64,000 bases of DNA from the NCBI GenBank assembly GCA_963790825.1, contig CAWBPM010000002.1, forward strand, positions 487,159 through 551,158, written 5' to 3'. Shown in pieces: positions 4,175 to 33,333 of the stretch (position 1 is its first letter; every line of letters starts with the position of its first letter). A program made the translations under genes and the position numbers. Origin of the DNA: Candidatus Levyibacteriota bacterium. GTDB taxonomy: Bacteria; Patescibacteriota; Microgenomatia; Levybacterales; UBA12049. Under the pieces are notes generated by a model that did not search any database, was not told where the DNA came from, and saw nothing but the letters and a program-made list of their open reading frames with translations.

Positions 4175-4182
4175 TTAATTTC

Positions 4183-4275: not shown

Positions 4276-6837
4276 ATGGATATAGGAGAATTAAAACAAG
4301 CAAATATTTCCCTGGAGATGAAAAAAGCGTATCTCAACTACGCCATGTCTGTTATCGTTGCCCGTGCTCTTCCCGATGTCCGCGACGGACTGAAGCCGGT
4401 TCACAGAAGAATTCTTTTCGCAATGCATGAGCTTGGTCTTACTCATGCGGCGAAATTTTCTAAAAGCGCGAAGATCGTCGGAGAAGTCATGGGTAAATAT
4501 CATCCGCATGGAGATGTTCCGATTTATGACGCACTGGTCCGATTGGCACAGGATTTTGCGATGCGCTACCCAATCATTCAGGGACAAGGAAATTTCGGTT
4601 CAATTGACGGCGATCCTCCGGCTGCAATGCGTTATACCGAGGCGAGAATGGCGGCAATTGCCGCGGAAATGCTGACGGACTTAGATAAAGAAACCGTGGA
4701 ATTTATTCCGAATTTTGACGGGAGTGAGGATGAACCTGTTTATCTGCCGGCAAAACTGCCGAACCTTCTTCTTATGGGATCTGAGGGTATTGCCGTCGGC
4801 ATGGCAACCAAAATCCCACCCCACAATCTCGGAGAAGTAATCGACGCGATCATTTATATGATTGGGAAGATTACTTTCGCCGGACTAAAGACGGGAAACG
4901 GACAGATACAAACTCCTGCTGTCTTAAAAGGAACTGTTGTTGAGTCAGCTAAGATAGGCCCCAAAGTGACACTTACCAGTAACGTTTCTATCGATGAACT
5001 TTTGGAATTTATTAAAGGCCCTGATTTTCCGACAGCCGGAAGTATCTTCGACATTACCGAGATTAAAAACGCGTATTATACAGGACGCGGGAAAGTTCTC
5101 ATCCGGGGAAGGGCAGAAATTGAAGATATCGGAAACGGTAAATCAGCAATCATCATTACCGAGCTTCCTTACCAGGTGAATAAAGCGCTGCTGGTTGCGA
5201 AAATTGCCGATCTGGCCAAAGAGAAAAAAATAGAAGGTATTTCAGATCTTCGGGACGAATCTGATAGACGCGGACTTCGGATTTATGTCGAGTTGAAACG
5301 CGACGCAACGCCAAAAAAGATTTTGAACAATCTCTATAAACATACCGCGCTGCAAACCAGTTTTCCGGTTAATATGGTTGCTCTGGTTGACGGCACTCCG
5401 CAAACACTTAATTTGAAAATTATTCTTGAAGAATATTTAAAACACCGTTATATCGTTATCAGACGCCGGTCGGAATTCGAACTTCGGCAAGCGAAAGCCA
5501 GACTGCATATTCTTGAAGGATTAAAAATTGCGGTTGATCACATTGATGCCGTTATTCGGACGATTCGCGAATCGGCTACCCAGGAAGATGCGAAGAAAAA
5601 TTTAATGCAGAAATTTGATTTGTCTGAAATTCAGGCAGTTGCGATTTTGGACATGCAACTGAGGCGTCTGGCAGCACTGGAAAGGCAAAAGATTGAGGAT
5701 GAGCTACAATTGGTCAAAGAGACTATCGAGTACCTGGAGGATCTTCTGACGCATCCTGAAAAGATACTCCATGTCGTAAAAGACGAGCTTGAAAATTTGA
5801 AAAGTAAATACGCCGATCCGCGTCGTACTAGGGTTTTCAAAAGTAAAGTCGGCGAGTTCTCCGAAGAGGATTTGATACCGAATGAATCGACTGTTATTAC
5901 CTTAACTAACACCGGCTATATCAAGAGGCAATCGCTTAATAGTTTCCAGTTGCAAAACAGGGGAGGGAAAGGGATTACCGGCATGAAAATGAAAGAGGAA
6001 GATGCTATCGCTCATATCCGTCATGCCCAAACGCATGACAATCTACTCTTTTTCACCAACAAGGGAAAGGCGTATCAACTGAAAGCGTATGAAATTGCAG
6101 AAAGCAGCAGAATCAGTAAGGGATCGGCGGTAATTAATCTGCTTAATATCGAATCCGGAGAAAAAGTGGAATCATTTATCAGCTACACGAAGGCAAGTCG
6201 TGGAACATATGTTTTTTTAACGACAAAAAACGGTACGGTGAAGAAATCTGCGCTGTCGGAATTTGAAAATATCAGGAGAAACGGCATTGCCGCAATTAAA
6301 TTGGATAAAGACGACGAGCTTGTTTGGAGTAAATTGACTGACGGCCAGAACGATATTATGCTCGTGACCAGAAATGGTCAGGCAATCAGATTCGGAGAAA
6401 GTTCTGTGAGACCTATGGGAAGAGCAACTATGGGAGTTCGGGGAGTAAGACTACAAAAAGATGATAAGGTAATCAGTATGGATATTATTTCAAAGACCGA
6501 GAAATTGGATCTCCTTACCATTATGGAAAACGGTCTCGGCAAAAAAACAGCAATTGATCTTTTCCGTGGTCAAAGCAGGGGAGGAATGGGAATTCATGTC
6601 GCTAAAGTAACCGATAAAACAGGAAAAGTCGTTGTATCGCAAGTTGTTCCCAAAACTGCAGAAGAAGTCATTATAACTTCCAAGAGGGGACAAGTTGTAA
6701 AACTGGCAATTACTTCTGTTCCTAAACTTAGCCGTGATACCCAAGGCGTCATCTTAATGAGATTTTCAAATCCAAATGATAAAGTCGCCTCCGCCACCTG
6801 CATCGAAAAAGGAGCTGAACTCGAGAAGAAAATGTAG
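4276..6837 (+). CDS. gyrA: DNA gyrase subunit A
   Basis: 853 aa. Motifs [43 protein letters not shown], and C-terminal beta-pinwheel repeats. Confidence 0.97.
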
Positions 6838-16007: not shown

Positions 16008-16943
16008 TCACTTGTTTCCGCTATGAAATGCCTTGTGCACATCTCTGAGTTGTTTATTCGTAATATGGGTATAGATTTGTGTAGTCGCAATATTCTTATG
16101 CCCCAGCATTTCCTGAACCGAGCGGATATCGGCACCGTTTGTGAGTAGATCAGTTGCGAACGAGTGGCGCATCGTGTGAACCGTCGCGTCAACCGGAAGC
16201 CTAGCCAACTTTACATATTTTTTAATCACCCGCTCGATACTCCTTGCAGTCAGGCGCATTTTTTCGCCGTCATTTTCCTCATTGGGACGTCCCGAATATC
16301 TGATAAAAAGCGGTTTATAGGAATCCTGCCGTATTCCCAAATAGTTCTGAATCCAATCGGCAGCGCGGTCCGAGACAAATACAATTCTTCCTTTTCCGCC
16401 TTTCCCAATTACACCGAATTCTTTCCGCTCCAAATTAATTTCTCCATGATTTAATTTTACAAGCTCCGATACGCGAAGTCCTGTTGAAAAAAGTAATTCC
16501 ATGATGCAGCGGTCCCGCATTCCTTCTTCTTTTGAAGTATCAGCCATATTAACCAACTGATCAATTTGCTCCCGTTCGAGAAATTTTAAGCTCCGGCTCT
16601 CGGTTTTTGGTAAATCAATTTTCGACGGCTCCAGAGTTTTATAATCATTCTTAATTAAAAACCTTAGAAACGAGCGAAGCGCGATTACATAATAATTTTG
16701 CGTCACTTTCTGAAGAGTCTGACCTTTATCATCTGTTCTATTGGCCAAAAATACCCGGTATCTGCGGATTATCGATAGGTCCAAATCTTCAATTGTTTTG
16801 TGTGGCAGGGTAGAGGAGAACCATTTTTCAAAAGTATCCAAGTAATGCCTGTAGTCCCGAATCGTTAACCGGGAAGAATTTTTTTCAATTTCCAAATATT
16901 CCAGATAATTATTAATTAGGTCAGGCAAGAACAGCGAACGCAT
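16008..16943 (-). CDS. Tyrosine site-specific recombinase XerC/XerD family
   Basis: C-terminal HTMRHSFATDLLTNGADIRSVQEMLGHKNIATTQIYTHI, with R..HxxR..Y catalytic residues. Start moved to Met48 (MRSLFLPDLINNYLEYLE) for a normal ~311-aa length. Confidence 0.88.
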   Translation of the reverse strand: MRSLFLPDLINNYLEYLEIEKNSSRLTIRDYRHYLDTFEKWFSSTLPHKTIEDLDLSIIRRYRVFLANRTDDKGQTLQKVTQNYYVIALRSFLRFLIKNDYKTLEPSKIDLPKTESRSLKFLEREQIDQLVNMADTSKEEGMRDRCIMELLFSTGLRVSELVKLNHGEINLERKEFGVIGKGGKGRIVFVSDRAADWIQNYLGIRQDSYKPLFIRYSGRPNEENDGEKMRLTARSIERVIKKYVKLARLPVDATVHTMRHSFATDLLTNGADIRSVQEMLGHKNIATTQIYTHITNKQLRDVHKAFHSGNK

Positions 16944-17000
16944 ATTCACTATACTAAAGGACAGGCAGTAGGAAGTCAAACCCAATGAGATCAATTTAGC

Positions 17001-18497
17001 TTGACAATACTTCCCCAAAAAAGCCATACTAAGTATATGCGGGAAGAATATATTCTCAGAGCAAAAGCATATCTTTTGTCTCAACCGGACTATAGAGAAA
17101 AATTCGAAGACATTAAAAAAGATCTCTTAGCACTTGGTGCCAGCGAAGAAGAAATCCAGAAAGCGATTGCAGACATTGAAGATGAGCCGATTGAAGAAGC
17201 GGACAAAAAGAAAGAACAAGCCGATAAGCCTGAAATTATAAAAAAATTACTTGAAGTAGATATTGCGTCCCACATTGTAACCGGCGTGCTTATTGTCTTT
17301 GCTCTTTTTTTCTTCTTTATGTTTCTGCACAATAGACAAGTATCTATGTCCCCTTCGTCAACCAATATTCAAACTAATGAGGGCTCACCGTTGGTCACAA
17401 GGGTATACGCTCTCACGCTTCCGGTAAATGCAACGCAGGTTTTTTCCTATCCCGGAACAAATATTAGTTTACCTATCTCAGGTTTTCCAAAGAGGGAAGT
17501 ACTTGGATTTTTTCCCTATTGGATGCTTGACGTTGAGGACAAAGTAAATTTAATTGGTATTACCGACATTAGTTTATTCGGTCTTGAAACAGATGGTAAT
17601 GGCAATATCATTACGGTCGGTAGTGATGGCACGACGGACCCGGGATGGACCATGTGGAATGATCCCAGGCTTACACTCTTCTTAAACAGAGTGAAAGCAA
17701 AAAACATTCACGTAGCACTCACAATAAAATCATTCAATAATAACAACATTGAGCATCTGATAAGTTCTGATAATAGTCAAAAGCAATTAATTGCTAATGT
17801 GATTCATCTAATTAGTATAAAAAATCTGGACGGAGTAAATTTGGATTTTGAATATACCGGAAACCCGACACCTTCTCAAATCAACTCATTTACTGCATTT
17901 ATTACCAATCTTAATACAAATCTAAAACAGCAAAATCCTAATCTCGCACTTACCCTGGATACAAATATTACTGCCGCCTCTCAGCCTCTGCTTCTAGATA
18001 TTCCTTCTCTTGCAGGCAGCGTCGATTCATTCATCGTCATGGGATATGATCTGCATACGCCGCAAGGCGAACCCGGCGCGATAGCACCGATTGACGGGAC
18101 CAATGGACTTATTGAACTTGTACAAAGTTACCTGGAAAAAGTAGGGCCTGAAAAAATTATTTTGGCTGTTCCGTATTATGGTTACGACTGGCCGATAAGC
18201 GACGCGGTAAACAACACAAGTCAAAATGCGGCAATACTTCCATATGCACAGGTGATGGATTTAGCCAAAGATAAAACTGTTTCCTGGGACGAAACTACAC
18301 AAACTCCATACTTTACTTATATTGACCCCACAACGAAGCTAAAACACCAGGTATATTTCGATAACACTCGCTCAATCGGTTTGAAATATGATTATATAAA
18401 TCAGAAGAATCTTAAAGGCGTCGGCATTTGGGCACTCGGCTACGACGGACTCAATCAAGACCTCGGCGCCCTCATCCTCGAGAAATTCGCCAAGTAA
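17001..18497 (+). CDS. Glycoside hydrolase family 18 (chitinase/YaaH-like) with N-terminal cytoplasmic segment and one TM helix
   Basis: DGVNLDFEY (DxxDxDxE catalytic motif), MGYD, PYYGYDW, VGIWALGYD. TM segment IVTGVLIVFALFFFFMF. The start might instead be Met13 at 17037. Confidence 0.75.
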   Translation: MTILPQKSHTKYMREEYILRAKAYLLSQPDYREKFEDIKKDLLALGASEEEIQKAIADIEDEPIEEADKKKEQADKPEIIKKLLEVDIASHIVTGVLIVFALFFFFMFLHNRQVSMSPSSTNIQTNEGSPLVTRVYALTLPVNATQVFSYPGTNISLPISGFPKREVLGFFPYWMLDVEDKVNLIGITDISLFGLETDGNGNIITVGSDGTTDPGWTMWNDPRLTLFLNRVKAKNIHVALTIKSFNNNNIEHLISSDNSQKQLIANVIHLISIKNLDGVNLDFEYTGNPTPSQINSFTAFITNLNTNLKQQNPNLALTLDTNITAASQPLLLDIPSLAGSVDSFIVMGYDLHTPQGEPGAIAPIDGTNGLIELVQSYLEKVGPEKIILAVPYYGYDWPISDAVNNTSQNAAILPYAQVMDLAKDKTVSWDETTQTPYFTYIDPTTKLKHQVYFDNTRSIGLKYDYINQKNLKGVGIWALGYDGLNQDLGALILEKFAK

Positions 18498-18538: not shown

Positions 18539-19444
18539 ATGACGAAATTTCTCCTCGATAGCGGTAATCCTAACGAGTATCGTGAGATTGCAAACCTTGC
18601 CAAACAACATAGTACTGAGATTTGGGGTGCGACGACCAATCCTACTTTGATTGCCAAACAATTAGGCGGCAAAAAACTAACTTCCCAAGAGGCATTTAAT
18701 TTACAAAAGCAAATCGTCATGGAAATCTTACGTCTCGTCCCCGGTGCGGTTTCCGCAGAAGTATATGCTGACGGAAAAACTACTGCCTCTGAAATGGTAG
18801 GGCAGGGGAGTGAGATCGCCTCCTGGCATGAACGGATAGTCGTCAAGCTCCCGACGACTTTGGAAGGATTATATGCAAGAACCAAACTTCGGCAATTAGG
18901 AATTATCATCAATAATACCTTAGTATTTTCGCAGGAACAAATTTTCGCAATTTGCCTGCATGAAAAATTGGTAATGAAAGAGGGGAGTGGCACTGAGAAA
19001 AAAGCCTACCCATGCTTTATCTCCCCTTTTGTCGGAAGACTTGATGACTCGGGATTAAATGGCATGGATATTATTAAAAATGGCGTGACACTTCGAAACG
19101 CTTTTAAATTTTCTCCCTGGATTTTATCTTCGTCAATCCGGACCCTCAGACATATGGAACTAACAATTCATTACAACTGTGACATTCTAACTGCACCGGC
19201 AAAAGTATATTTGGAGCACTTCGGACATGATAATAAAAGCGAAGACGAGTTAGGCTCGTCGACACAAACTCCGGAGTTAATACAAATCCCCTACTGGAAG
19301 CCAAAAGATGAGCTTCTGCGAATTTCGACACTCGACGAATTGTTTTCTGCAATTTCCTCCGGCAGATTAAATATAAATCATCCGCTTACTATAAAAGGCA
19401 TCCAGAAATTTAGCGAGGATTGGAGCAGTATCATCACCTTATAG
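18539..19444 (+). CDS. Transaldolase family protein
   Basis: FLLDSGNP, GATTNP, VVKLPTTLEGL...GIIINNTLVFSQEQ. Start set at MTKFLLDSG; the track ORF 18428 reads through from the upstream gene end. Confidence 0.85.
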   Translation: MTKFLLDSGNPNEYREIANLAKQHSTEIWGATTNPTLIAKQLGGKKLTSQEAFNLQKQIVMEILRLVPGAVSAEVYADGKTTASEMVGQGSEIASWHERIVVKLPTTLEGLYARTKLRQLGIIINNTLVFSQEQIFAICLHEKLVMKEGSGTEKKAYPCFISPFVGRLDDSGLNGMDIIKNGVTLRNAFKFSPWILSSSIRTLRHMELTIHYNCDILTAPAKVYLEHFGHDNKSEDELGSSTQTPELIQIPYWKPKDELLRISTLDELFSAISSGRLNINHPLTIKGIQKFSEDWSSIITL

Positions 19445-20538
19445 TCTTTTTCAATAATTACACTATTTTTTTGTTATTAATAGAAATCAGTGTATTTTTT
19501 TATTACCATCTCTAAAGTAACCCAACGAGCTCAAGCTGCAAAGCCCTAGAATGCCCTAGGAGGCTTTCGAAACTAAAAAGATGAGTAAATACATGTCTTT
19601 GGTTATAGTGATTAAAATTATTAACTAAAACAAGTAACACAAACATGTTCCACTCCGATACAAAAAAGGCAAGGGGAGATCAATTTTCATCAATTTTAGC
19701 CTCAAGTTAGCCTGATAAACCAATATGAAAAACAATTTAAGCCCTATAGTAGGGATTTAATGAACCATTCTAAGCAGACGAGAGTATAAATAAATCCAAA
19801 CCGACAAAAAATTTGGGTCTGATAAAAAATATTAATTAAGCACAAGTTGCAGAAAGCAGAAAAAGTCCTTCCCCGGCAATCCGCCCCAGAACGCGTCGTA
19901 AAAGTATTATTGTGCGACGTTATTAATTCAGCTTCCTGTCCGGTAATACCTGATCGATTTTCTTTTTTGAGAACTTCCAGAATATGATCACAGCAGTTAT
20001 TCCATACCAGAGTAGAGATCATCTCTATTAATAGATATACTCTTTTCTTAAAGGTGATAGTTTCGCTCCGTAGCTTGATAAGCTGCAATTGGAATAAGAT
20101 TATCATAGGTACCTTGGGGTATCCTTCTCTGGAGATAAGCACAATACTTTAATTTAGACTGTAGAATCAAGCTAAAGTATACATTTTAGCTTCACATAAA
20201 CGCATTTTAGTTGTTCGTATTTTTTTCAAATGAATAGTAAACTAAGTATATCTCCGTCATCTCTTCGAGTCCTCAGAGTCAAGGACCTGGAGAAGCAATG
20301 ACTTTGATGGGATCTAAAAAATTGACGGGATTCTATCGTCCCGTTAAGCGTGACTTCAGAATGACAAGTAAAAAACCACCAATTACTTATATACAGCCAT
20401 GTTACTCTGTGAAAAGTAAAATATTATTGTGAAAATTCTTACTTTTATCCTATAACTATATCATACCACATCATAAATATTATGGGATTTTCCTGTTCTT
20501 CCTTGCCCTTCTCCCCTCTCCTACTTACTAGTTGGCTA

Positions 20539-21399
20539 TTATTTTCCCCAAGCGGTAAAAATATTTAAAACAAGAAGTACAATTGTTGCTACCCAGAGAT
20601 ACTCCCACAAAATGCTGCGAAACAGCCTCTTCTCCAACCAGACATGGGAGAGCCCAACGATAATATAAAAAAATCCTGTCATGAAAAGCGCGAGGACTGT
20701 CGGACTGCTTGGCCAAAACCAAAGTGCCGCCGCCACTTCCAGACAACAAAGACTTAAGCCAAAAACCCACTTTGAAATTGATAACGGATATTTCCCGAGA
20801 GTATATGTCCATACCGCATGATAAGCCAACAAATACGAATATAAAGATACCAGAACTACTTCAAGTATGATAAATTGATGGAGAGAGAAAATTATATTTG
20901 AGAGAAAAAAGAAGGAAATGAGCGTGATAACGAAAGAAACAATTCGTGCTCCGGATAGTAAGGCAATCGTTCTGATCGATGCTACAATAAAAATGTTTTG
21001 GCTTAACAGTAAGGAATATAAACCAAAAGCATATAATACAGCTAAAATAATTCTGAAGATTAACCTGGCCGGTACTAAAAAATAAAATAATCCAAATGCC
21101 AAGCTATAAAAAAATGGCAGGATAAAAATCGCATACATCCCCTTCTCCGTCATGTCTCTCCTCATTGCCCAAAATACAAATAAATCGGTAAATACCGATA
21201 AAAAAGTTGTAATATATACTCCTGACTTACCAAACTGAAATTCGGTAAAAAATAAGCCGAGGGAGAGAATGATAACGCTGATAACAAACTTCTGTCGTTT
21301 ATCAATAGTAAATGTGATCGGTCTCCTTCCCTTTTTGCTAAATGTCAGATGCCGCCTATGCAATGCGGGATTAGGATATGTTGACAAAATATTTTGCAT
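20539..21399 (-). CDS. Hypothetical polytopic membrane protein (286 aa)
   Basis: Multiple hydrophobic helices. No motif recognised. Confidence 0.55.
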   Translation of the reverse strand: MQNILSTYPNPALHRRHLTFSKKGRRPITFTIDKRQKFVISVIILSLGLFFTEFQFGKSGVYITTFLSVFTDLFVFWAMRRDMTEKGMYAIFILPFFYSLAFGLFYFLVPARLIFRIILAVLYAFGLYSLLLSQNIFIVASIRTIALLSGARIVSFVITLISFFFLSNIIFSLHQFIILEVVLVSLYSYLLAYHAVWTYTLGKYPLSISKWVFGLSLCCLEVAAALWFWPSSPTVLALFMTGFFYIIVGLSHVWLEKRLFRSILWEYLWVATIVLLVLNIFTAWGK

Positions 21400-21410: not shown

Positions 21411-22145
21411 TTAGGGCGTAATAATATCATAATTTGCATAGATTTCTTGGACATCAGGATGCTCTTCGAGTTTTTCTAAAAATGCCAGAAGTTTATCTGC
21501 TGACTCTTTATCCGAGATTGTAATGACAGTAGTCGGACGTCTAATAAGTTTTGCCTCTACTATCTCAAGCCCTAAACTAATTAAGTTGTCTCGTACCTTT
21601 CCAAGTGTTTCAGCTCGCGTATAAATGAGAACCTGATCATCAACTTCTTCAACGTCTTCCGCACCATTGTCGGCTGACATGAGATAAATATCATCAAGAG
21701 TGCGTCCGTTTTTCTTAACCAAAATCATTCCTGCTTTTTGAAACTGGTAAGAAACCGAACCGGGTGTTGCGATATTGCCTCCATTTTTATCAAAAATACT
21801 TTTTACCTCAGGAGTAGTCCGCAATTTGTTATCAGTGACAGCTTCAACAATAATACTGATTCCACCGGGACCAAACCCTTCGTAAACGACTTCTTCAAGA
21901 TTTGCCGCGTCTTTGCTGGTTGCCCGCGTAATTGCCCGCTCAATATTATCCTTTGGCATGTTAGCATTTCTCGCAGCTTCTATTGCCAGACGCAGACGGA
22001 AATTCATGGCCGGGTCCCCTATCCCGCCCCCCTGCTTCACCGCTAAGGTAATTGCCATTGAGAGTTTAGTAAATGCTTGCCCCCTTTTAGCATCATTCGC
22101 ACCTTTTTGTCTTTTAATGGTCTTCCATTTTGAATGTCCGCTCAT
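21411..22145 (-). CDS. yebC: YebC/PmpR family DNA-binding regulator
   Basis: MSGHSKWKTIKRQKGANDAKRGQAFTKL, the canonical YebC N-terminus. Confidence 0.93.
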   Translation of the reverse strand: MSGHSKWKTIKRQKGANDAKRGQAFTKLSMAITLAVKQGGGIGDPAMNFRLRLAIEAARNANMPKDNIERAITRATSKDAANLEEVVYEGFGPGGISIIVEAVTDNKLRTTPEVKSIFDKNGGNIATPGSVSYQFQKAGMILVKKNGRTLDDIYLMSADNGAEDVEEVDDQVLIYTRAETLGKVRDNLISLGLEIVEAKLIRRPTTVITISDKESADKLLAFLEKLEEHPDVQEIYANYDIITP

Positions 22146-24217: not shown

Positions 24218-25018
24218 TTACTTTTCTTGAATTTCCTGCAAATTTTTTTCTATGAATTCCTTAAGTTCAATCGGTAGTGGACTTTCGAAATGCACTTCTT
24301 CCCCACTCTTTGGATGGAGGAAACTAATTTTTGCCGCATGGAGAAAAACCCGATTAAGAAGTTTTCTGTCTCTATTTGCAGTTTTACGTCCGGCGTAGAG
24401 AAAATCGGAAAAAATCGGGTGATTAAAATACTTCAAATGAACTCTGATTTGATGAGTTCTGCCTGTTTTTGGCGTCAATTCAACAAGAGATAACTCTTCC
24501 CTCTGTTTGCCGGGCATTAAAAAATACTGGGGTACCTGATAAAATGTTACCGATTCCCGTCCTCCCGCGACAATTCCAAATTGCCTACGGTTCCAAGGCA
24601 GTCGGTCTACCGGAACGTTAATTTCCCCATTCCGCGGAGCGATTCTGCCATGAGCTAAGGCAATATATGTTTTCTGCACGGTTCGCTCTTTAAATTGTTT
24701 TTGTAGATTTTGGAAAGCATCAGGATTTTTCGCAACCAAAAGGATTCCCGAAGTTTCCTTGTCTATGCGGTGTACTATCCCTCCCCGTTCACGGAATGCT
24801 TGCTGAAAATATTCTTTACTTGTGTAGTCATCAATTTTTTTCCTTCCAACTTTTAATTTTTCACTTTCAATTTTTAATTTGCTTTCCGTCCAATCCTGAA
24901 CAGTTAATTGGCTTTGGGTCGTATCAGACTTATTGACGGTGATGCCTGCCGGCTTATTTAAAACCAGTAAATCATCGTCTTCATAAATTATTTGGATGGG
25001 ATTTTCTTGATTTTCCAT
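24218..25018 (-). CDS. RluA-family 23S rRNA pseudouridine synthase (RluD-like)
   Basis: LLVLNKPAGITV, HRIDKETSGILLVAKN, HQIRVHL. Confidence 0.88.
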   Translation of the reverse strand: MENQENPIQIIYEDDDLLVLNKPAGITVNKSDTTQSQLTVQDWTESKLKIESEKLKVGRKKIDDYTSKEYFQQAFRERGGIVHRIDKETSGILLVAKNPDAFQNLQKQFKERTVQKTYIALAHGRIAPRNGEINVPVDRLPWNRRQFGIVAGGRESVTFYQVPQYFLMPGKQREELSLVELTPKTGRTHQIRVHLKYFNHPIFSDFLYAGRKTANRDRKLLNRVFLHAAKISFLHPKSGEEVHFESPLPIELKEFIEKNLQEIQEK

Positions 25019-25021
25019 AGT

Positions 25022-25717
25022 CTACTCTATTTTTTTACGTGTGGGTTTTATTTGTAAACGTAAAAAGAGGAAAAGAAAAATAAGTAAAATAATAAGGGTA
25101 AAAATGTCTTCGGGGGTAACTCTATATACATTGCCTTTTACATAAAATATGATACGGAGAACAAGAGAAATGAGTGAGACGTTAAAGACAAATAAGGTTC
25201 CGATACTGCCATCCCGGATACTACCCCGAAGCAGCTTCCTGTAGAGTACACGAATAAAGAAGAAGAAAAGAATGATATAGCATACCATTTCGATAAGTAT
25301 TTGAGGAGCTACGTTTAGCGGGTATAAAAAGATACTACCCAATAAAGCAAAGGGCAAAGCACAAAGAACAGAAAGAGAGAAAAAGTCTGCTAGTCTGCCC
25401 GCAGGATATTTTTTTAGTTTAGAAATATAGTAGATATACCCTCCTCCACCGAGTATTCCGCCTAAAAACGAAAGGCCGGGAAAATACGGTATTGCCAGAA
25501 TAATAATCGGGCTTAAAAAATGATTGCTGAAATGTAAAATAATATAGATAAGCCGGCTGCCAACGAGACCCATAAAAGAGGTGCTAAAAGCGAGGTTAAA
25601 TAAATACTCTAGCGTAACATTTCTCCTGATTAGGATGAGATCTTCCTGTCCCAGTTTATATAAACAAAAGAGGAAAATAAAAAAACTAATAATAAAAAAT
25701 AAAATAAAAAACAGCAT
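25022..25717 (-). CDS. Hypothetical polytopic membrane protein (231 aa)
   Basis: Hydrophobic helices. A tentative Lgt resemblance was checked and rejected. Confidence 0.5.
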   Translation of the reverse strand: MLFFILFFIISFFIFLFCLYKLGQEDLILIRRNVTLEYLFNLAFSTSFMGLVGSRLIYIILHFSNHFLSPIIILAIPYFPGLSFLGGILGGGGYIYYISKLKKYPAGRLADFFSLSVLCALPFALLGSIFLYPLNVAPQILIEMVCYIILFFFFIRVLYRKLLRGSIRDGSIGTLFVFNVSLISLVLRIIFYVKGNVYRVTPEDIFTLIILLIFLFLFLRLQIKPTRKKIE

Positions 25718-25720
25718 GTG

Positions 25721-26986
25721 TTAACGCATAACAACCCGGACAATACCGAGCATTACTAAACTAATTCCTATACCAATAATAACCCTTCCTACTCCTATTA
25801 AATCCGACAGTCCTCCAACCGCAATAATCGGCACCAGGGAAAAAATTCCGACAATACTGTTTAAGCCGCCGTAGATTTTCCCCCGGAATTCATCCGCTGT
25901 TTGTTCTTGTAAGATTGTGTTCGAAGGGACAAAAACAAGTGCGTTCGCAACTCCTAGAACAAACGCTAAAAAAATCAGAATATGAATATTTGTAATTGTC
26001 AAAAAGTGCGGAATAAGACTGTTAACTACCTTAACAAAATCATGCGAGCTGATCGCTGAAGCAAATGGCAGCACCATCATCGAAACTCCCGAGAGAAATA
26101 GACCCACAATAACCATTTTATTTCTGGAATAATGATGAAATACGTTTACCAAAAATATTCCGCCCAAGATCATTCCGAGCGCCGCAGGTGTTACAAAAAT
26201 AACCGGAAATTCTTCAACTTTCATGCCTAACACCTGGTTAGCAAATCCCGGAATGACGGCGGCAATAACTAAAATAAGAATTTGCGCCAACGCCAGCAGA
26301 AAAAGCGATCCATAGATTTCCCGCGTCCGGCTCATAAGCTCCAAAGCGCGCTTTATTTCTCGTCCTATATCTAAATTCGCCATAAAATCGATCGAATCAG
26401 GCTTTTTTTGTGTTTTGGGTAGTTTAATGAAAGATATAAAAACCGCTCCAATCAAAAGCGCCACAGCTAAAATAATCAGCGTTCCAATTTGTCCGAAAAG
26501 CAAAATTAGTGGTCCCGAGAGAACATAGGCGAGAAGAATTGAGCCAAAAATAGCCATGCTGAATAGTGCATTTGCCGAAAACAGCACTTCTTGTTTTACA
26601 AGAAGCGGAATCATAGGTGTTTCGGCAGGAATAAAAAATTGAGTAACAATGGAGATGCAGAAAGAAACAAGATAAATTATGAGTAAATTCGTATGGAAAA
26701 ACGCCAAAAACAACAAAAGGAAAGCGCGAAGAATATTACAAATTCCCAGTACTCTTTTTTTATCCCGCCTGTCGACATAGACACCTGCCACAATGCCAAA
26801 TAAAATTGCCGGAATAGTGAATGATATAATAACACCTGCCACAGCAGTGTTGGAGTGCGTCAATGTATACACGGTAAGAATAAGATAGAAATTAAAAAGA
26901 TTGACAGAAATCTGGGTAAAAATCTCGCTCAGCCAGAGAAAAAGGAAAGGTTTTTCGCTAAATGCCTGGAAAATATTATGTTTCAT
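25721..26986 (-). CDS. MFS family transporter
   Basis: About 12 TM segments and a VYVDRRDKKRVLGICNILRA loop motif typical of MFS. Confidence 0.8.
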   Translation of the reverse strand: MKHNIFQAFSEKPFLFLWLSEIFTQISVNLFNFYLILTVYTLTHSNTAVAGVIISFTIPAILFGIVAGVYVDRRDKKRVLGICNILRAFLLLFLAFFHTNLLIIYLVSFCISIVTQFFIPAETPMIPLLVKQEVLFSANALFSMAIFGSILLAYVLSGPLILLFGQIGTLIILAVALLIGAVFISFIKLPKTQKKPDSIDFMANLDIGREIKRALELMSRTREIYGSLFLLALAQILILVIAAVIPGFANQVLGMKVEEFPVIFVTPAALGMILGGIFLVNVFHHYSRNKMVIVGLFLSGVSMMVLPFASAISSHDFVKVVNSLIPHFLTITNIHILIFLAFVLGVANALVFVPSNTILQEQTADEFRGKIYGGLNSIVGIFSLVPIIAVGGLSDLIGVGRVIIGIGISLVMLGIVRVVMR

Positions 26987-27543
26987 TCTTGGGCTCTTTC
27001 GGAATATGCACCGGTGCGGGTATCAATTCGAATCGTGTCACCCGAATTGATAAAAAGTGGAACTTTCGTTTTCAATCCGTTCTCAAGTATTGCATCTTTA
27101 AAAACATTTGTCGCTGAATTTCCTTTTATTCCAGGTGCGGTTTCTGAGACAACAAAAACCATTTTAGGCGGTAGTTGGACCGAAAGCGCCCGGTCTCCGA
27201 GAAAACTAACGGTAAAACTTTCTCCTTCTTTTAAATATTCATATTGGTCTATTACGTCAAGAGCAATGGTAATTTGCTCATACGTTTGCAAATTCATAAA
27301 ATAAGCATTTTCGTCATCCTTATAGAGAAATTGCAGTTCATTCTTTGCGACTGTAACAGCATCTACTTTGGCACCGTTAATGTAGCTTTTCTCCACCGTT
27401 GAGCCATTGCTAAGATTCTTTACTCTAACTTTAATATTTGCCGAACCCCTACCCATTTTAATGTGTTCGTAGGAGATTACTTGATATAAATTACCGTCTT
27501 CACGGTATGTTGTACCGGATTTTAGATCTGTAACACCAATCAT
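26983..27543 (-). CDS. efp: Translation elongation factor P
   Basis: MIGVTDLKSGTTYREDGNLYQVISYEHIKMGRGSANIKVRVKNL. Loop-tip residue is Arg. Confidence 0.93.
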   Translation of the reverse strand: MIGVTDLKSGTTYREDGNLYQVISYEHIKMGRGSANIKVRVKNLSNGSTVEKSYINGAKVDAVTVAKNELQFLYKDDENAYFMNLQTYEQITIALDVIDQYEYLKEGESFTVSFLGDRALSVQLPPKMVFVVSETAPGIKGNSATNVFKDAILENGLKTKVPLFINSGDTIRIDTRTGAYSERAQE

Positions 27544-27603
27544 AGTTAATTAAAAATTCAAAGTGAAAAGTTTAATGTTATTGAGCTTAACAACTTGTAT
27601 AAT

Positions 27604-29139
27604 TTACTTTCCTTTTCGCTCTTCCATTAATTGTAGCATAGTTCTGACACCAAATCCGCTCCCGCCTTTCGGCCCCAAACTATGCGGTTTTTCGGCAAAA
27701 GCCGGTCCAGCGATGTCAAAATGTACCCAGGATTTATCTCCGATAAATTCCTGCAAGAAAAGTGCGGCAGTAATTGTCCCAGCGTAACGGGAATTTGGAA
27801 TGTTGGCAATGTCTGCAATTTCGCTTTTGTTCATGTCTTTATACTCTTTTTCCAAAGGTAATTCCCAAACCTTTTCTCCTGCTCTATAAGCAGCATTTTT
27901 AACTGAGTCAACCAAATCCCTGTTGTTGGAAAAAATAGCAGCAATTTCGGTTCCCAATGCCACCAAGCATGCTCCGGTCAACGTGGCAAAATCGATAATC
28001 TCAGTTGCTCCTTCTTTTACCGCAAAAGAAAGACTATCTGCCATAGTGACTCTTCCCTCCGCATCGGTGTTCAGAACTTCAATTGTCTTTCCGTTTAGAG
28101 CTTTTACGACGTCGCCCGGGACAATTGACTCGCCCGAGATGAGATTCGGAGTTGCGGCAATAAGACCCATGACTGGAAAATCGGGTTTGATCTTTGCTAT
28201 GACGGAAAATACGCCGAGAACTGTCGCTGCACCTGCCATATCCATTTTCATATCCTGCATATGATCACCCGGTTTGACATTAATACCGCCGCTGTCAAAC
28301 GTAATTCCCTTCCCGACCAATGCCAGTTTTCTTTTACTTTTCGCTTTTTCCGGTGTATATGAAAGGAAAATAAATTTCGGCTCAGCTGCTGATGCGCGAG
28401 CAATGCCGAGTAGTGCTTCCATTCCCATCCTTGTAAGTTCTGTCTTGCCAAAAACTTTACACGTGATAAGCGGGCTGGATTTGGCAATGTCTTTGCCTAA
28501 ATTTGCCAAATACTCAGGTGTCGCAATCGCCGCTTGCTCGTTTACCAAATCTCGCGCCAAGATAGTTGCATCCGAATAAAGTATGGCTTTTTCAATTGCC
28601 TTTCTCACTTTATTTGACGGAGTCTCTTCTGAAATTGCGAGAATAATAGTTTCCAGATTTCTTTCTTCGGGCTTCTTGGCTTTATATTTCAGAAAAGTGT
28701 AGTTTGCCAAATTAACCGCTTCTACAATAACATGCACAACGTCTTTCATATCCTCATCTGCTACTCCCTGCACAGAAATTGTTAGTGAATTAATCTTCCC
28801 TTTTTGAGACGTGACAAATTTACCGGTAATATTTCGTAAATCATTGAGGACAAATTCGGTTTCTTTACCCAAACCCAAGACAACTACCTTGGTTGGTACA
28901 ATTTTTCCCTGAGTAAATAAAATGCACGTTTTTTCTGATTCTCCTTTAAAATGCTCTACGTTACAAATTGCCGATAATTGTCCGTCGAGTGTTTGGTCAA
29001 GCTGTGTAAACGCAGAAGACGTGAGATAGGATTTTTCATCTTCTTTTTCAAATACATACACGAGAAGAATGTCGGACGAGATTTTTGAAAGAAGATTTTG
29101 TGAGACTTCAAATTTCATAGCTAAGCGATATTTTATCAT
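27604..29139 (-). CDS. pepA: Leucyl aminopeptidase (M17 family)
   Basis: NTDAEGR signature, DMAGAA, and KPGDHMQDMKMDMAGAA metal ligands. Confidence 0.9.
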   Translation of the reverse strand: MIKYRLAMKFEVSQNLLSKISSDILLVYVFEKEDEKSYLTSSAFTQLDQTLDGQLSAICNVEHFKGESEKTCILFTQGKIVPTKVVVLGLGKETEFVLNDLRNITGKFVTSQKGKINSLTISVQGVADEDMKDVVHVIVEAVNLANYTFLKYKAKKPEERNLETIILAISEETPSNKVRKAIEKAILYSDATILARDLVNEQAAIATPEYLANLGKDIAKSSPLITCKVFGKTELTRMGMEALLGIARASAAEPKFIFLSYTPEKAKSKRKLALVGKGITFDSGGINVKPGDHMQDMKMDMAGAATVLGVFSVIAKIKPDFPVMGLIAATPNLISGESIVPGDVVKALNGKTIEVLNTDAEGRVTMADSLSFAVKEGATEIIDFATLTGACLVALGTEIAAIFSNNRDLVDSVKNAAYRAGEKVWELPLEKEYKDMNKSEIADIANIPNSRYAGTITAALFLQEFIGDKSWVHFDIAGPAFAEKPHSLGPKGGSGFGVRTMLQLMEERKGK

Positions 29140-29215
29140 CTAAACGTGAAAAAAGAAAGCGAACGAGAACAATTTTCATTTCTATCTACGGCCAACTGAA
29201 AATTGTTAGGTCTGT

Positions 29216-29244
29216 TGAATATCGAATGTAAATACCGTAAAATA
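29216..29244 (+). promoter_or_regulatory. Sigma70-like promoter TTGAAT-N17-TAAAAT about 15 nt upstream of tRNA-Leu
   Basis: Seen in sequence. Confidence 0.5.
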
Positions 29245-29259
29245 CTATATAAGCGACTA

Positions 29260-29344
29260 GCCGGGATGGCGGAATGGTATACGCGGTAGTCTCAAAAACT
29301 ACTGGCTCTAAACGGCCTTGTGGGTTCGACTCCCTCTCCCGGTA
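29260..29344 (+). tRNA. tRNA-Leu (anticodon CAA), class II with long variable arm; no encoded CCA
   Basis: Hand-folded: acceptor GCCGGGA/TCCCGGT (G1:U72), D-stem GCG/CGC, anticodon stem GTAGT/ACTAC, loop CTCAAAA (U33, A37), variable arm ~16 nt, T-arm GTGGG-TTCGACT-CCCTC, discriminator A. Confidence 0.85.
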
Positions 29345-29366
29345 CTAAAATATCGAGTTTTGTTAT

Positions 29367-30965
29367 TTACCATGGGCACTCTTCATCCCAATCCTCTTCG
29401 TCTTTTCCAAATATAAACTCCATTTGTTTTGACTGACCTTCTTTGATCTTTTCAAGTGTTTCATGATCTGCAAAATCGTATTCATCCCATTCTCTTCCTT
29501 CATTACCCGGATCTACCAAATCAAATAATTTAGCCATCGGCGGCTCTTCGCTATGAACTGCATCGTTTAGAAAAAGATTTTCTTCCCAATCGTAATCAAC
29601 AGTAAATTCCGGTTCTTGATCAGGCAATGGAATTTCCTCGGTTTCCAAGTCTTCAAGAGTTGCAAGTTCCCCCCTGTATAAATGTTCCGGTCTTCCCAGT
29701 CCAACTGTTTTATATCCTTGGTCCCGTACAATTCCAGCCGTATACTGAAGTGCTGTTATTGCCTCTTTCTCACCCCCATACAGATTTTGCTGATAAATAT
29801 CGAGGACATTGGTAAATAATTTCTCCATATTGCTATTAATTTTAGGACCAAACCACATAGTTTTAGTAAAAACTTTTTTAGAGACCCTGTCATGAAATGA
29901 GAGCAACAAATCTGAGCAGCGTTGTATCTTACTTGGCTGAACCATCAGAGAATAAAAAACAGCAGCTCCACTACCGGCGCGGTTTGCAATATTTATAAAT
30001 GCAGCTTTAAATGCATCTGGATTAACTGCTTGCAGTCTTTGACTGTATTCATTAACTTCGTTAACTTGTTGTTTCGTTTCCTCTTCATCTTTCGGATATT
30101 TTTTTATATAATTTTCCGCTCCGCTTATATAGGATAGCTGTGCATAGGCAAACTTTCCCAGCCGAGATAATCCATAACCGAACCATTTCGTTATATCTTT
30201 CCCTCTTTTTGTTCGCGGAACTTCCGTTTGCACTTGTTGTAAGTCTTTTACTGCTTGCACTGGTGGATAGTCTGTATATGCATGCAAAAGTGCTACTCCA
30301 GGCAACGTCCACCCTGTCGTCTCTCTGCCAAACCGGCGAACCATATCTTCTGTCATATCCGTAAATTCTTCAACAGTAGGATTATTTTTCCCAAGAATAT
30401 GTGGAACACTGTACATAAACGTGTCAGCTAACCGGAGGGAGCCAATTCCACGCAAATATGCTCCGGAAACGCGTAGTGTCTGCAGATCTCCCCCCTTTTC
30501 AAGGTATTCCGGAAGTCGACTTGCATACCTGGCTGCGAATAATTTTCCGCCTGCATCGACTGCCGTATCGACTGATTCAAAAAATGCATTCGGGTCTATT
30601 CCCTGCTTTCGCACATCATTATATGATCTTGTAAACTGCGCTGCAGCTTTCATACCAAACCTCTGATACGCCAGTGGCACTAATTTACTGTATGTTTCAA
30701 AATCAAAGTCAGGTCTGCCTAGCTCATCCATGGAGTGTTCTATAAATCGCTCTGCCTGGACAGGATTATAACTTCTGCCCAAATGTATCGTTTCTTCTTC
30801 AATTTGCGCTGTCCAGTTGCCTTTTCTTACCATTTCCTCGACAAATTTTCCCAGCGCTTTCACTGATTCTGTCTCAGAACTGCCAATTGCAGCTTCTACT
30901 CTTTCCCGCGCATGACGCTCTTCTGACTGGTAATATGACGCATATCCTTGTTTTTCGGATGACAT
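29367..30965 (-). CDS. Hypothetical 532-aa protein with strongly acidic C-terminus (...DWDEECPW)
   Basis: Long ORF with no recognisable domain. Immediately adjacent to the tRNA-Leu gene. Confidence 0.55.
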   Translation of the reverse strand: MSSEKQGYASYYQSEERHARERVEAAIGSSETESVKALGKFVEEMVRKGNWTAQIEEETIHLGRSYNPVQAERFIEHSMDELGRPDFDFETYSKLVPLAYQRFGMKAAAQFTRSYNDVRKQGIDPNAFFESVDTAVDAGGKLFAARYASRLPEYLEKGGDLQTLRVSGAYLRGIGSLRLADTFMYSVPHILGKNNPTVEEFTDMTEDMVRRFGRETTGWTLPGVALLHAYTDYPPVQAVKDLQQVQTEVPRTKRGKDITKWFGYGLSRLGKFAYAQLSYISGAENYIKKYPKDEEETKQQVNEVNEYSQRLQAVNPDAFKAAFINIANRAGSGAAVFYSLMVQPSKIQRCSDLLLSFHDRVSKKVFTKTMWFGPKINSNMEKLFTNVLDIYQQNLYGGEKEAITALQYTAGIVRDQGYKTVGLGRPEHLYRGELATLEDLETEEIPLPDQEPEFTVDYDWEENLFLNDAVHSEEPPMAKLFDLVDPGNEGREWDEYDFADHETLEKIKEGQSKQMEFIFGKDEEDWDEECPW

Positions 30966-31141
30966 AATTTCGCATTATACATCGAGGATTTTGAAAAAAC
31001 CATGGTCGTAGAATTCGTAAAATTTTCTCTGCTTGCCGCCTAAGAAGAAAAATTTTAGCAGTCTTTTGCGTCTGGTACATTAGTCTGAATTTGTTTATCC
31101 CCTTTCGCAGAAAATCACGATTGTAAGATTATAGATGAATG

Positions 31142-31531
31142 CTAAGGGTTTCTGTTTCGGAAGGATTTCGCTTCCGACGAAGTGTGAATAAAATCTCGAT
31201 CGTAAGGCTGGGGAGCTTTATCTGCAGAAACAGACGCATCAACTACCTGTCTAAATAATGGCTCGGAGAATTGACCCTGAGCTAATAATATTTCACTTCC
31301 GCCTAGACTCTGAGCGAGAGAAGAATTTGGATCGCTTAGCCTAACACGTAGCGCTCTATATTTATCTATTCTTTCAACTATTATCCCCCTATACCACTTT
31401 CTCTCACCTTTCTCATCTTTACCTAAACTAAACTCTACCTCAGGTAGCCGGTTATGGTTATTAGTACCAGGTTCTATTGGCAATAATTCTCTATTATTAT
31501 TCATTGTTATATTATCTCCGGCAAACTTCAA
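31142..31531 (-). CDS. Hypothetical protein (129 aa)
   Basis: ORF only. Lies between the ABC exporter and the 532-aa protein. Confidence 0.45.
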   Translation of the reverse strand: MKFAGDNITMNNNRELLPIEPGTNNHNRLPEVEFSLGKDEKGERKWYRGIIVERIDKYRALRVRLSDPNSSLAQSLGGSEILLAQGQFSEPLFRQVVDASVSADKAPQPYDRDFIHTSSEAKSFRNRNP

Positions 31532-31545
31532 GAATTGATAGGGGG

Positions 31546-33333
31546 TTATTTATATCCCTTCGCTTGAAGTTCGAAAAGTTCTGCGTATAGTCCTTTTTTC
31601 CTGAGCAGTGCTTCGTGGTTTCCGGCTTCGACAATTCTTCCTTCATCCAGAACGAGTATCCGATCGGCATTTCGTACGGTTGAAAATCTGTGAGAAATAA
31701 TAATGACTGTTTTATCACTTTGCAATTTCTGCACATTTTCAAAAATTTCATATTCTGCTTTCGCGTCAATTGCTGCTGTCGGCTCGTCTAAGATTAAAAT
31801 CGGAGCATTGCGGAAAAATGCTCTGGCCAATGCAAGTTTTTGCCACTGTCCACCGGATAAGTCGATCCCATCATCAAACATTTTTCCCACGATTTGATCT
31901 ATTCCTTTGGGCAAGTTATCAAGGTATTTATCAGCTCCTGATTTTGCAATTGCGTCTTTAAGTAGTTTTTCATTGTTTTTCTCTGCTAAGTTGCCAAAAT
32001 AAACATTTTCTTTAAAGGTAAACTGGTACTTGATAAAGTCCTGAAATAATGCGCCAACCATTTTATGCCACTCTTCAAGACTTAAATCCTTTATATTTAC
32101 TCCGTTAATAAGTAGTTCTCCTCCTGTGACGTCGTAGAAGCGAAGGATTAGTTTAATAATCGTTGTCTTCCCTGCCCCGTTTTCTCCAACCAATGCAATT
32201 TTCTCACCACTTTCAATCTTCAGATTAAAATTTTTTAAGATAAACCGATCAGTTTTTGGATATTTGAAAGACGCATTTTTAAACTCAATGACAGGCGGAG
32301 TAGGTTTTTGAGATAAAGAGATAGGATTTACAGACGATTTGATGACATTTTCAATCTCTAAAAAATCAAAGAACTTGGCAATTAAATCAATTCGCATGGC
32401 AATACTAGAATACATACCTAAAAGTCCTTCAACTCCATACGCCAGACTCATGATTTGTTGAAAATACAAGGTAAATTGACCAATCGTAACGTTACGCCGA
32501 ACAACCGCTAAAACAAGCAGATATTGCGAATAGAGAAATGCAGACAGCTGGATAAAATTCATCATGAACGTTTGTTCAACCCCTTTTTCAGTTATTACAT
32601 TAAACGGTGTAAAATAGTTCTTTAGTTCATGTGAAACTTTTTGCTGCATTGCCGGACCGGTTTTAAAAATTGCCGCTTCTTTCGAGGTGGAATCAGACGA
32701 TAAGAGATTACGGATATACATGATCACTCTTTTTACGGCTGCACGTTTGGGAAGAAAGTAGGGAAACACTTTCGTCCGGTATTTGTCGGTAACAAAATAG
32801 GTAGGAATTGTGGTAATAATTATTAGTGGGACAACCCAGGGAAAGATAGGAAAAAGGATCACTATTGCTGCTGTGACTTTGACAATATTATTGATAAGTC
32901 CCGTAATCCGGTCCTGCAGTATTACCATAGGTCCAACAGTACCGTCAATTTGGGAGAGTAAGTTCTGAAACTTTGATTTTTCAAATGTTGCCGGATCAAG
33001 CGTTGCAAGTTTCTGGATAATGACACTATCAAGATAAAATTCGAGTTTATTTTGAAAATATGGTTGTTTTAAACTGTCATAATTGGCTAAATAGTAATTC
33101 AGTAAACTTGCTACTGCGTAAGCAGAACCTATCCAAATAAAGCTTGATTGAATAGCGAAGATGGAGCTTAGGTGTGTCAATAAATCAATAACTCTGGCTA
33201 AAAGGATGAGCTGAATCAAGGGATAAAGTGTATTACTGTAAACTCCGGAAAATATTGAGACGACCACATAAACTCCGTAAGCTCTCCAGGAGAGCTGAAA
33301 CACTTTCCAGGTGTAATAAAGATTCTTCTTCAT
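31546..33333 (-). CDS. ABC transporter, fused permease/ATPase exporter (type I, MsbA-like)
   Basis: N-terminal 6-TM domain. GENGAGKTT Walker A, LSGGQWQKLALARAF signature, ILILDEPTAAID Walker B. Confidence 0.88.
   Translation of the reverse strand: MKKNLYYTWKVFQLSWRAYGVYVVVSIFSGVYSNTLYPLIQLILLARVIDLLTHLSSIFAIQSSFIWIGSAYAVASLLNYYLANYDSLKQPYFQNKLEFYLDSVIIQKLATLDPATFEKSKFQNLLSQIDGTVGPMVILQDRITGLINNIVKVTAAIVILFPIFPWVVPLIIITTIPTYFVTDKYRTKVFPYFLPKRAAVKRVIMYIRNLLSSDSTSKEAAIFKTGPAMQQKVSHELKNYFTPFNVITEKGVEQTFMMNFIQLSAFLYSQYLLVLAVVRRNVTIGQFTLYFQQIMSLAYGVEGLLGMYSSIAMRIDLIAKFFDFLEIENVIKSSVNPISLSQKPTPPVIEFKNASFKYPKTDRFILKNFNLKIESGEKIALVGENGAGKTTIIKLILRFYDVTGGELLINGVNIKDLSLEEWHKMVGALFQDFIKYQFTFKENVYFGNLAEKNNEKLLKDAIAKSGADKYLDNLPKGIDQIVGKMFDDGIDLSGGQWQKLALARAFFRNAPILILDEPTAAIDAKAEYEIFENVQKLQSDKTVIIISHRFSTVRNADRILVLDEGRIVEAGNHEALLRKKGLYAELFELQAKGYK

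Follow-up and report, generated by a model that had tools for sequence, protein, structure and literature searches.

The 64-kb stretch of DNA analyzed here (64,000 nt, hereafter the window) comes from a Candidatus Levyibacteriota bacterium of the Patescibacteria; it is part of a 751-kb contig, and its proteins are singletons at 90% identity. Between a transaldolase gene and a gene for a DUF5656 membrane protein, the window contains its longest intergenic spacer, 1094 nt, compared with a median of 72 nt and with 650 nt for the runner-up. This spacer, referred to below as the gap, holds a series of conserved motifs, one of which, denoted X, is a candidate dif site (the site of chromosome-dimer resolution) for an Xer-family tyrosine recombinase encoded nearby. 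The gap, its flanking genes and the one sizeable open reading frame (ORF) called within it are the following.

18539-19444, plus strand: transaldolase gene, left flank of the gap
19445-20538, no strand: gene-free spacer between the transaldolase and DUF5656 genes, with an equivalent gap of 0.7-1.4 kb after DUF5656 in relatives
19744-20142, minus strand: spurious 132-aa ORF that overlaps X and the P2 motif (see below)
20539-21399, minus strand: DUF5656 membrane protein gene, right flank and syntenic anchor of the motif array, preceded by yebC
21411-22145: yebC, ahead of the DUF5656 gene

The original prediction for this DNA, which had been made by reading the letters without database searches, described a 1.1 kb gap that lacks a convincing ORF and offered several explanations for it; the description holds, as the gap is indeed ORF-poor. 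The 132-aa ORF, already considered implausible at that stage, has no match in Pfam, matches only itself among 5.8e9 proteins and has a codon score (-0.127) below that of every 132-codon window of the real genes in the window (minimum -0.004). Pfam searches with all small ORFs of the gap produced no match either. When six-frame translations of the gap were compared with those of 57 related gaps, only the block around X matched, and it did so in every frame; the reading frame is not conserved, and this includes the short basic 44-aa ORF to which attention had been drawn earlier. Neither a conserved frame nor protein homology, the marks of a protein-coding gene or pseudogene, was found in the gap. 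A blastn search of the gap against plasmids and phages yielded no match, X was not found in viral contigs, and a search for repeats within the gap and across the window detected short chance repeats only.

Homologues of the DUF5656 protein at 47-65% identity are abundant in Patescibacteria, and the relatives analyzed here are 80 metagenome loci with a DUF5656 alignment, 60 of which have at least 700 nt downstream of DUF5656 (a scan of genome contigs with the transaldolase recovered only distant, non-syntenic loci). In every related contig inspected, yebC and DUF5656 are followed by a gene-free gap of 0.7-1.4 kb, and the gene past the gap, usually convergent, encodes a trehalase, transaldolase, GH18 family protein or hexokinase. 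Adjacency of the flanking genes in homologous genomes had been named in the original prediction as the finding that would speak for junk or a deletion scar; the opposite is seen, in that the relatives retain the gap. Within it, motif blocks occur in a fixed collinear order over ~850 nt (from ~20521 to 19671 in the window): the purine tract, TGATATAGTT, TGTGGATAA/CTTTTCACA with TTTTCACA, GAAAAAAATACGAA, TTGAGGCTAAA, a palindrome and X, followed by GGGGAGG[AG]C, C[CT]ACTAT[AG]GG, a second TTGAGGCTAAA and ACTCCCCTT. The spacing of the blocks is kept as well, with ~30 nt from K to G1 and ~195 nt from X to G2. In the window, the blocks and the associated features are located as follows.

20506-20521, minus strand: purine tract GGAGAGGGGAGAAGGG, just past the DUF5656 stop, which contains AGGGGAG and GAGAAGGG (KOPS/SRS-like; see below) and points towards X
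20454-20463, minus strand: R motif TGATATAGTT, of which relatives have one to three copies, including a tandem pair spaced by 10 nt
20408-20435, minus strand: two TTTTCACA boxes, DnaA-box-like
20316-20344, minus strand: terminator-like hairpin ACGGGA-N8-TCCCGT followed by a T run, specific to the window and not kept in relatives
20214-20227, minus strand: K motif GAAAAAAATACGAA, found in 48 of 58 loci ~300 nt ahead of X
20153-20193, minus strand: G1 copy of the G motif (GAAGCTAAAA), then the 24-bp palindrome TTTAGCTTGAT..ACAGTCTAAA
19892-19920, minus strand: X, dif-like site of 28-29 bp, ACGTCGCACAA-TAATAC-TTTTACGACGC(G)
19895-19918, minus strand: conserved core of X, GTCGCACAATAATACTTTTACGAC
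19865-19874, minus strand: P2, GGGGAAGGAC, which in relatives reads GGGGAGG[AG]C; on the DUF5656 strand it follows X by 20 nt
19742-19754, minus strand: CCCTACTATAGGG motif (C[CT]ACTAT[AG]GG, or CCCATAGTCA in one subgroup)
19695-19705, minus strand: G2 copy of the G motif, TTGAGGCTAAA, near-palindromic TTNAGSCTNAA
19671-19679, plus strand: Y1, AAGGGGAGA, or TCTCCCCTT when read on the minus strand; of the G-rich polar motifs, the first to face back towards X

Taken across the relatives, these motifs are not equally strict. Each of the 60 loci whose sequence continues for 700 nt or more beyond DUF5656 has the pattern of X, GTCG[CT]A.AAT...ACTTTT[AG]CGAC, exactly once and in a constant orientation, at a distance of 330-1360 nt from the DUF5656 stop, and the ~400 kb of these loci that lie outside the gaps lack it. 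The R motif in the form TGATATAGT is found in 52 of 58 distinct loci, P2 is matched within one mismatch at X+0 to X+50 in ~43 of 58, and purine tracts comparable to that of the window lie at X-700 to X-500. There are 4-7 copies of the G motif, with both orientations represented, and its 103 occurrences inside gaps against 9 in 400 kb outside correspond to a 69-fold higher density. A perfect TGTGGATAA, the complement of a DnaA box, precedes the TTTTCACA boxes in 38 of 58 relatives, where it adjoins CTTTTCACA, with a further TTTTCACA at a fixed position. In the window this element is degenerate, and no DnaA box with one mismatch or fewer is present in the gap; the DnaA-box-like motifs noticed earlier in this gap do not, accordingly, stand at that threshold, whereas the relatives do carry a perfect one at a fixed place. 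The R repeats, the trio of DnaA-box-like elements, K, the G copies and the 24-bp palindrome are probably protein-binding sites. We also considered the R repeats as a DnaA-trio and rejected this possibility upon inspection as they lack trinucleotide periodicity.

The average pairwise divergence of the spacers is 0.53, yet X is kept. Pairs of moderate divergence have 70-80% identity in the gap, compared with ~60% at third codon positions and 47-56% at four-fold degenerate sites; when set directly against four-fold degenerate sites, the whole gap reaches 73-80% where these sites reach 47-62%. Very close pairs show faster divergence in the spacers that separate the blocks than in the genes on either side: L043 and L047 are 95.6% identical in the gap versus 98.8% at third positions, and L018 and L020 are 71% identical in the gap versus 93.6% at third positions, with flanking DNA ~96% identical. 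The differences between close strains are clustered. Across such close pairs (flanking genes 96-99.6% identical; the L018 gap spans 4822-6065), identity in the segments between the motifs drops to 40-70%, or the substitutions there are clustered, and the divergence seen in L018/L020 and L043/L047 may represent local hypervariability or imported tracts of DNA. Inverted, shufflon-like segments were not found between close strains, and a TIGR-like or CRISPR-like array was rejected, there being no periodic repeat and no associated protein. In two loci, L031 and L083, an additional ORF (181 and 218 aa, respectively) is inserted between DUF5656 and the motif array, such that X is found at +1326 and +1362; the array is therefore not simply a 3' untranslated region, and its behavior is that of an independent unit. 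A decayed gene or a deletion scar, one of the explanations originally offered, is contradicted by these comparisons because the gap and the motif order persist in ~60 relatives without a conserved frame. Judging from the aligned loci, the gap is a conserved non-coding DNA module in this whole group of Patescibacteria.

The X element itself has an 11-6-11 layout, ATGTCG[CT]ACAA / TAATAC / TTTT[AG]CGACAT. Its arms match in inverted orientation at 9-10 of 11 positions, with one fixed asymmetry between them, and the arm positions are either invariant or co-varying. The center varies by lineage (TAATAC, TATAAC or GAATAC), and the asymmetric 16-bp interior is nearly invariant. X is unique in the window even when three mismatches are allowed, with 0 matches expected. 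This is the broad architecture of the target sites of Xer recombinases, namely two inverted arms of ~11 bp that flank a center of 6-8 bp, ~28-31 bp altogether. The genome also encodes a recombinase of the appropriate family.

16008-17084, minus strand: Xer-family tyrosine recombinase gene, 2.8 kb from X, with the Pfam domains Phage_int_SAM_1 and Phage_integrase

Against the NCBIfam models this protein scores 244 bits for XerC, 242 for XerD and 213 for XerA, all under the equivalog cut-offs. An Xer-family gene is located 2-5 kb away in all 7 annotated loci (the window, L003-L005, L086, L089 and L090). We infer that X is a candidate dif site of the Xer-family recombinase encoded 2.8 kb from it. 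A CCCNACTATGGG motif was considered as an alternative dif and was rejected upon inspection, its arms being too short and too variable.

The FtsK-orienting polar sequences (KOPS) are G-rich motifs skewed towards dif, and KOPS and the SpoIIIE recognition sequences (SRS) converge at dif (PMC3384302). The octamer GGGNAGGG, the Escherichia coli KOPS consensus, is present in the window at 8 sites against 3.2 expected, a number reached in 1 of 100 shuffles, and all 8 sites face the gap: three on the plus strand to the left (5106, 5960 and 18800) and five on the minus strand to the right (24779-33581). A wider G-rich family is distributed between the strands 39:5 to the left of the gap and 4:37 to the right. 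Inside the plus-strand genes of the right side, members of this family are antisense by 9:1, which shows that the G-rich skew is not a coding-strand effect. The relatives behave in the same manner: their GGGNAGGG sites, which fall at a variety of gene positions, are split 16:1 on the upstream side and 2:20 on the downstream side; in their downstream plus-strand genes, antisense outnumbers sense 7:1 for GGGNAGGG and 15:3 for AGGG[AG]AG. Control purine motifs (GAGGGA or GGAGGA, AAGAAG and GAAGAAG) instead track the sense strand of the genes. The same family was recovered by an unbiased search for k-mers whose strand preference reverses across the gap, with AGGGAAG at 52:8 on one side and 1:30 on the other and CAGGGGAG at 16:0 and 0:14. 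On both sides, then, the motif is skewed towards the candidate dif independently of gene strand, as is characteristic of KOPS. The orientation of genes is likewise convergent, over 10 kb or more to either side of the gap. Because both the G-rich motifs and the gene orientation converge on the gap, the former even where they are antisense to genes, we read the gap as a polarity switch of the terminus type.

Combining these observations, we favor, at roughly even confidence, the interpretation that the gap is a conserved non-coding module located at a terminus-type switch, in which X is a candidate dif, the G-rich motifs are KOPS-like guides and the remaining motifs are probably bound by proteins. 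Under this interpretation, X would be the site at which the Xer-family recombinase encoded 2.8 kb away binds and recombines the chromosomes to resolve dimers. The G-rich polar motifs (GGGNAGGG and AGGG[AG]AG) face the gap from both sides as KOPS face dif. Given this KOPS-like convergence, an FtsK-type translocase, provided that it recognizes the G-rich motifs, would be steered to X at division. The original prediction had also suspected a functional non-coding region, possibly tied to the architecture of chromosome replication, and in this respect we judge it to have been right.

Several observations weigh against this interpretation. For canonical XerCD-dif sites, the criterion was that positions 7-12 of the 28-mer form more than four complementary pairs with positions 17-22 (Kono et al., 2011; PMC3025954), and the corresponding segments of X, CACAAT and CTTTTA, form three, or four in the T variants. 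A dif site needs ~30 bp, and the conserved motifs extend over ~850 nt. Inside the module, AGGGGAG flips only between X+45 and X+200-260: P2, 20 nt beyond X, continues to have it on the DUF5656 strand, and Y1, 200-260 nt beyond X, has it flipped, which places X ~20 nt outside the innermost converging pair. Finally, the GC skew at third codon positions (GC3 skew) keeps its sign across the gap, and the DUF5656 strand is G-rich to either side of it (43 of 43 and 33 of 33 loci). In L089 and L090, this strand stays G-rich for 10 kb downstream, with no flip within this distance. In the window, the cumulative GC3 skew, corrected for orientation, has its peak at 11.6-16 kb, 4-8 kb off the gap; a switch at 11-12 kb fits slightly better than none, and a switch at the gap fits worse. 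The position of the peak and the missing flips imply that the mutational skew does not coincide with the polarity of motifs and genes; the two are 4-8 kb apart in the window and over 10 kb apart in certain relatives. The zone in which GC3 skew and polarity disagree covers the xer-like, GH18, transaldolase and trehalase genes.

X shares features with several characterized Xer systems. The single-recombinase systems, XerH/difH of Campylobacterota and XerS/difSL of streptococci and lactococci, likewise have one Xer-family gene in the neighborhood of a site composed of two near-matched arms, a 6-bp center and a small conserved asymmetry. The difH consensus is GTATTGAAAA-CTATAA-TTTTCAAAC (PMC3325230), and X, TGTCGCACAA-TAATAC-TTTTACGACA, shares with it the inner arm ends ..AA-N6-TTTT.., whereas outside these A/T ends the arm sequences of X are unrelated to those of difH and difSL. 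Unlike in these systems, the gene is not adjacent but 2-5 kb off, with sugar-metabolism genes between, X is embedded in ~850 nt of further conserved motifs, and the candidate recombinase has nearly equal XerC, XerD and XerA scores, all below the cut-offs. With canonical XerCD-dif and KOPS-guided FtsK, as in E. coli and Bacillus subtilis, the locus shares a ~28-bp site that is unique (for X, within the window and the loci), converging G-rich polar octamers (GGGNAGGG, with 8 sites in the window against 3.2 expected; GAGAAGGG in B. subtilis) and convergent gene orientation. It differs in that the rule for the inner palindrome is not obeyed, the symmetric halves of the X arms being the outer ones, and in that GC3 skew does not flip at X. 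In the plasmid Xer sites cer and psi, the core is accompanied by conserved DNA of a few hundred bp that is bound by proteins and required for proper recombination, a likeness to the module; their accessory DNA is on one side only (~180 bp) and binds ArgR, ArcA and PepA, whereas the blocks of the module are conserved on both sides of X over ~850 nt and the motifs are unrelated.

The Patescibacteria, or candidate phyla radiation, are mostly uncultured, and the completion of replication and separation of chromosomes are almost uncharacterized in them; literature searches on DUF5656, on Patescibacteria with oriC and on Patescibacteria with dif identified no paper on dif, KOPS or this module in Patescibacteria. 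The unique 24-nt core together with the polar AGGG[AG]AG and GGGNAGGG motifs would provide a landmark to place the segregation terminus on assemblies and to check assemblies, and the definition of X and the motif substrates would permit in vitro tests of Xer and FtsK. The extra ~850 nt of motifs, the DnaA boxes of the relatives and the offset between polarity and GC3 skew point to something beyond a plain dif site. It is conceivable, although we consider it unlikely, that the ~850-bp module is a new kind of 'terminus organizer', made up of an Xer site, FtsK-loading motifs, a phased array of DnaA boxes and R repeats and multi-copy palindromes, or else a motif-rich, structure-poor RNA of ~0.8 kb. 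A terminus organizer, if real, could tie the control of initiation of replication to the resolution of dimers and to segregation in these minimal-genome bacteria.

Two alternatives deserve detailed consideration. The first, to which we assign a rather low probability, is that the module is a cluster of protein-binding sites unrelated to Xer, with X an operator-like palindrome; examples would be a DnaA-titrating or DnaA-regulated locus akin to datA and the DnaA-box clusters (DBCs), or a nucleoid-organizing or centromere-like site at the G motif. The perfect TGTGGATAA next to CTTTTCACA with the second TTTTCACA at a fixed place in 38 of 58 loci, the phasing of the R repeats 10 nt apart, the near-palindromic G motif with its 4-7 copies in both orientations and 69-fold enrichment in gaps, and the absence of an RNA strand bias in the 24-bp palindrome are all consistent with such a cluster. 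The DnaA boxes are degenerate in the window and hence not universal, and a cluster of this kind leaves unexplained both the exact convergence of polar motifs and gene orientation and the near-invariance of the asymmetric 16-bp interior of X. E. coli datA and the B. subtilis DBCs are similar in being intergenic clusters of consensus DnaA boxes away from dnaA and oriC, as in 38 of 58 relatives; the module differs from them in that it has only about three boxes, degenerate in the window, within a larger fixed-order array beside a dif-like site. This alternative is compatible with X being a dif.

The second alternative, which we likewise regard as improbable, is that the module consists of one or more lineage-specific non-coding RNA genes on the DUF5656 strand, in which X, the G1/G2 hairpins, the palindrome and P2/Y1 would be helices; it could be, for instance, a protein-sponge RNA with repeated GAGGCUAAA and GGAG motifs. 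The collinearity of the blocks and their kept spacing, the conservation of the whole gap above that of four-fold degenerate sites in moderately diverged pairs, and the resemblance of R (TGATATAGT) to an extended -10 element would all be compatible with a transcribed unit. Compensatory changes were observed in the closing pair of X and in the palindrome between L003 and both L005 and L012, and also in the G-/G+ hairpin of L059, and P2 and Y1 are complementary. The structure tests mostly point the other way. The minimum free energy z-scores of 150-nt windows on both strands of the gap are never below -2.5, and the fold of the whole 856-nt module has z-scores of +0.5 (minus strand) and -1.6 (plus strand) relative to shuffles, that is, it is not better than the shuffles; the gap, which had been called hairpin-rich, is not so above chance, and of the four hairpins listed originally all are present, with GTCCT-N8-AGGAC located at 20269-20286 rather than at 20262. 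RNAalifold on 48 sequences recovered the X stem only. In an alignable subgroup of 11 sequences, two-sided changes were found in 14 pairs on one strand and 15 on the other, with many pairs broken, and no conserved intrinsic terminator was found in the relatives.

The mismatches bear on the same question. In the 24-bp palindrome, the non-Watson-Crick cells comprise 34 of the G.U type and 25 of the A.C type, which gives no strand-specific RNA signal. Within X, two pairs conflict: 23 of 48 sequences have C.A at position 122/137, and position 117/142 is UA in 25, UG in 12, CG in 10 and CA in one, so neither strand pairs cleanly. The orientation of the G motif is flipped in some lineages (e.g., L010 and L012), which is easier to reconcile with a near-palindromic binding site for a protein than with a fixed helix. 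Collectively, the patterns of mismatch and orientation suggest protein-binding DNA sites with slightly unlike half-sites rather than RNA helices, although the module may still be transcribed.

Searches for known RNAs were negative throughout. At the gathering score, Rfam detected nothing in the gap, and a tRNA-Leu (29260-29344) was the only match in the whole window; a permissive scan of the gap (E<=10) yielded only chance matches to eukaryotic families. In the 14 related loci scanned (L003-L005 at the gathering score and 11 more with permissive E-values), there were scattered chance matches only, and ARAGORN, run on the window and 39 loci, found no tmRNA or tRNA within any gap. No sequence in the gap qualified as tmRNA, RNase P RNA, SRP RNA, 6S RNA or a member of another Rfam 15 family, and a divergent copy of any of these four RNAs was excluded on the strength of the Rfam and ARAGORN results. 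The proposal that the gap encodes ssrA, rnpB, ffs or 6S RNA fails in the window and in the relatives alike, and the tmRNA-like and RNase P-like strings behind it are chance resemblances. In the subgroup of L022, L027 and L057, the segment between the 24-bp palindrome and X contains GGGGTGTGAAAGGGTGACTTTTCAC, which recalls GGGUGAAAGGGUG of bacterial RNase P RNA; Rfam finds none there.

The possibility that the gap is the chromosomal replication origin (oriC), also raised originally, has very little left in its favor and is largely refuted. It could be argued from the long AT-rich spacer with repeats, from the DnaA-box trio of the relatives and from the presence of gyrB/gyrA, dnaB, ssb and ychF within 35 kb. 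Against this, genes and polar G-rich motifs converge on the gap where divergence is expected at an origin; the GC-skew plot that had been proposed as a check, computed here for third codon positions, shows no flip at the gap and no origin-type flip; neither dnaA nor dnaN is present in the window or the loci; and the gap of the window contains no DnaA box with at most one mismatch. The combination that marks an oriC, that is, a DnaA-box cluster, divergent polarity and, usually, proximity to dnaA, was not found at the gap. The genes gyrB/gyrA, dnaB, ssb and ychF (1622-6837, 34587-35930, 50312-50803 and 52635-53789) flank the switch and are all transcribed towards it; in Bacillus-type genomes, these genes cluster near oriC.

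The remaining notion, that the gap is a decayed gene, a deletion scar, neutral junk or a divergent known RNA, for which the 132-aa ORF and the short tmRNA-like and RNase P-like strings could be cited, is, on the evidence of the alignments, refuted by the pattern of conservation and strikes us as scarcely credible, as the ORF is an orphan with non-coding codon usage, the six-frame comparison with 57 gaps yields only the X block in every frame, the motif order holds at protein identities down to 47%, and Rfam and ARAGORN are negative.

Some further features of the window were recorded. A tRNA-Leu(CAA) gene is located ~7-9 kb upstream of the module in a syntenic position (29260-29345 in the window; 3014-3099 in L086, 2205-2289 in L089 and 2999-3082 in L090). 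The second-longest spacer of the window (54815-55464) lies next to an rve-family integrase gene of the insertion sequence type (53786-54814, minus strand). Dense repeats of the CTAAT/TAATTAG type are common to three intergenic regions, 4175-4275 before gyrA, 43033-43130 before the release-factor gene that starts at 43131, and 50840-50858 near ssb; within them, 4244-4268 and 43051-43075 form an inverted 25-nt match at 96% identity, and these repeats may represent a shared operator or promoter motif.

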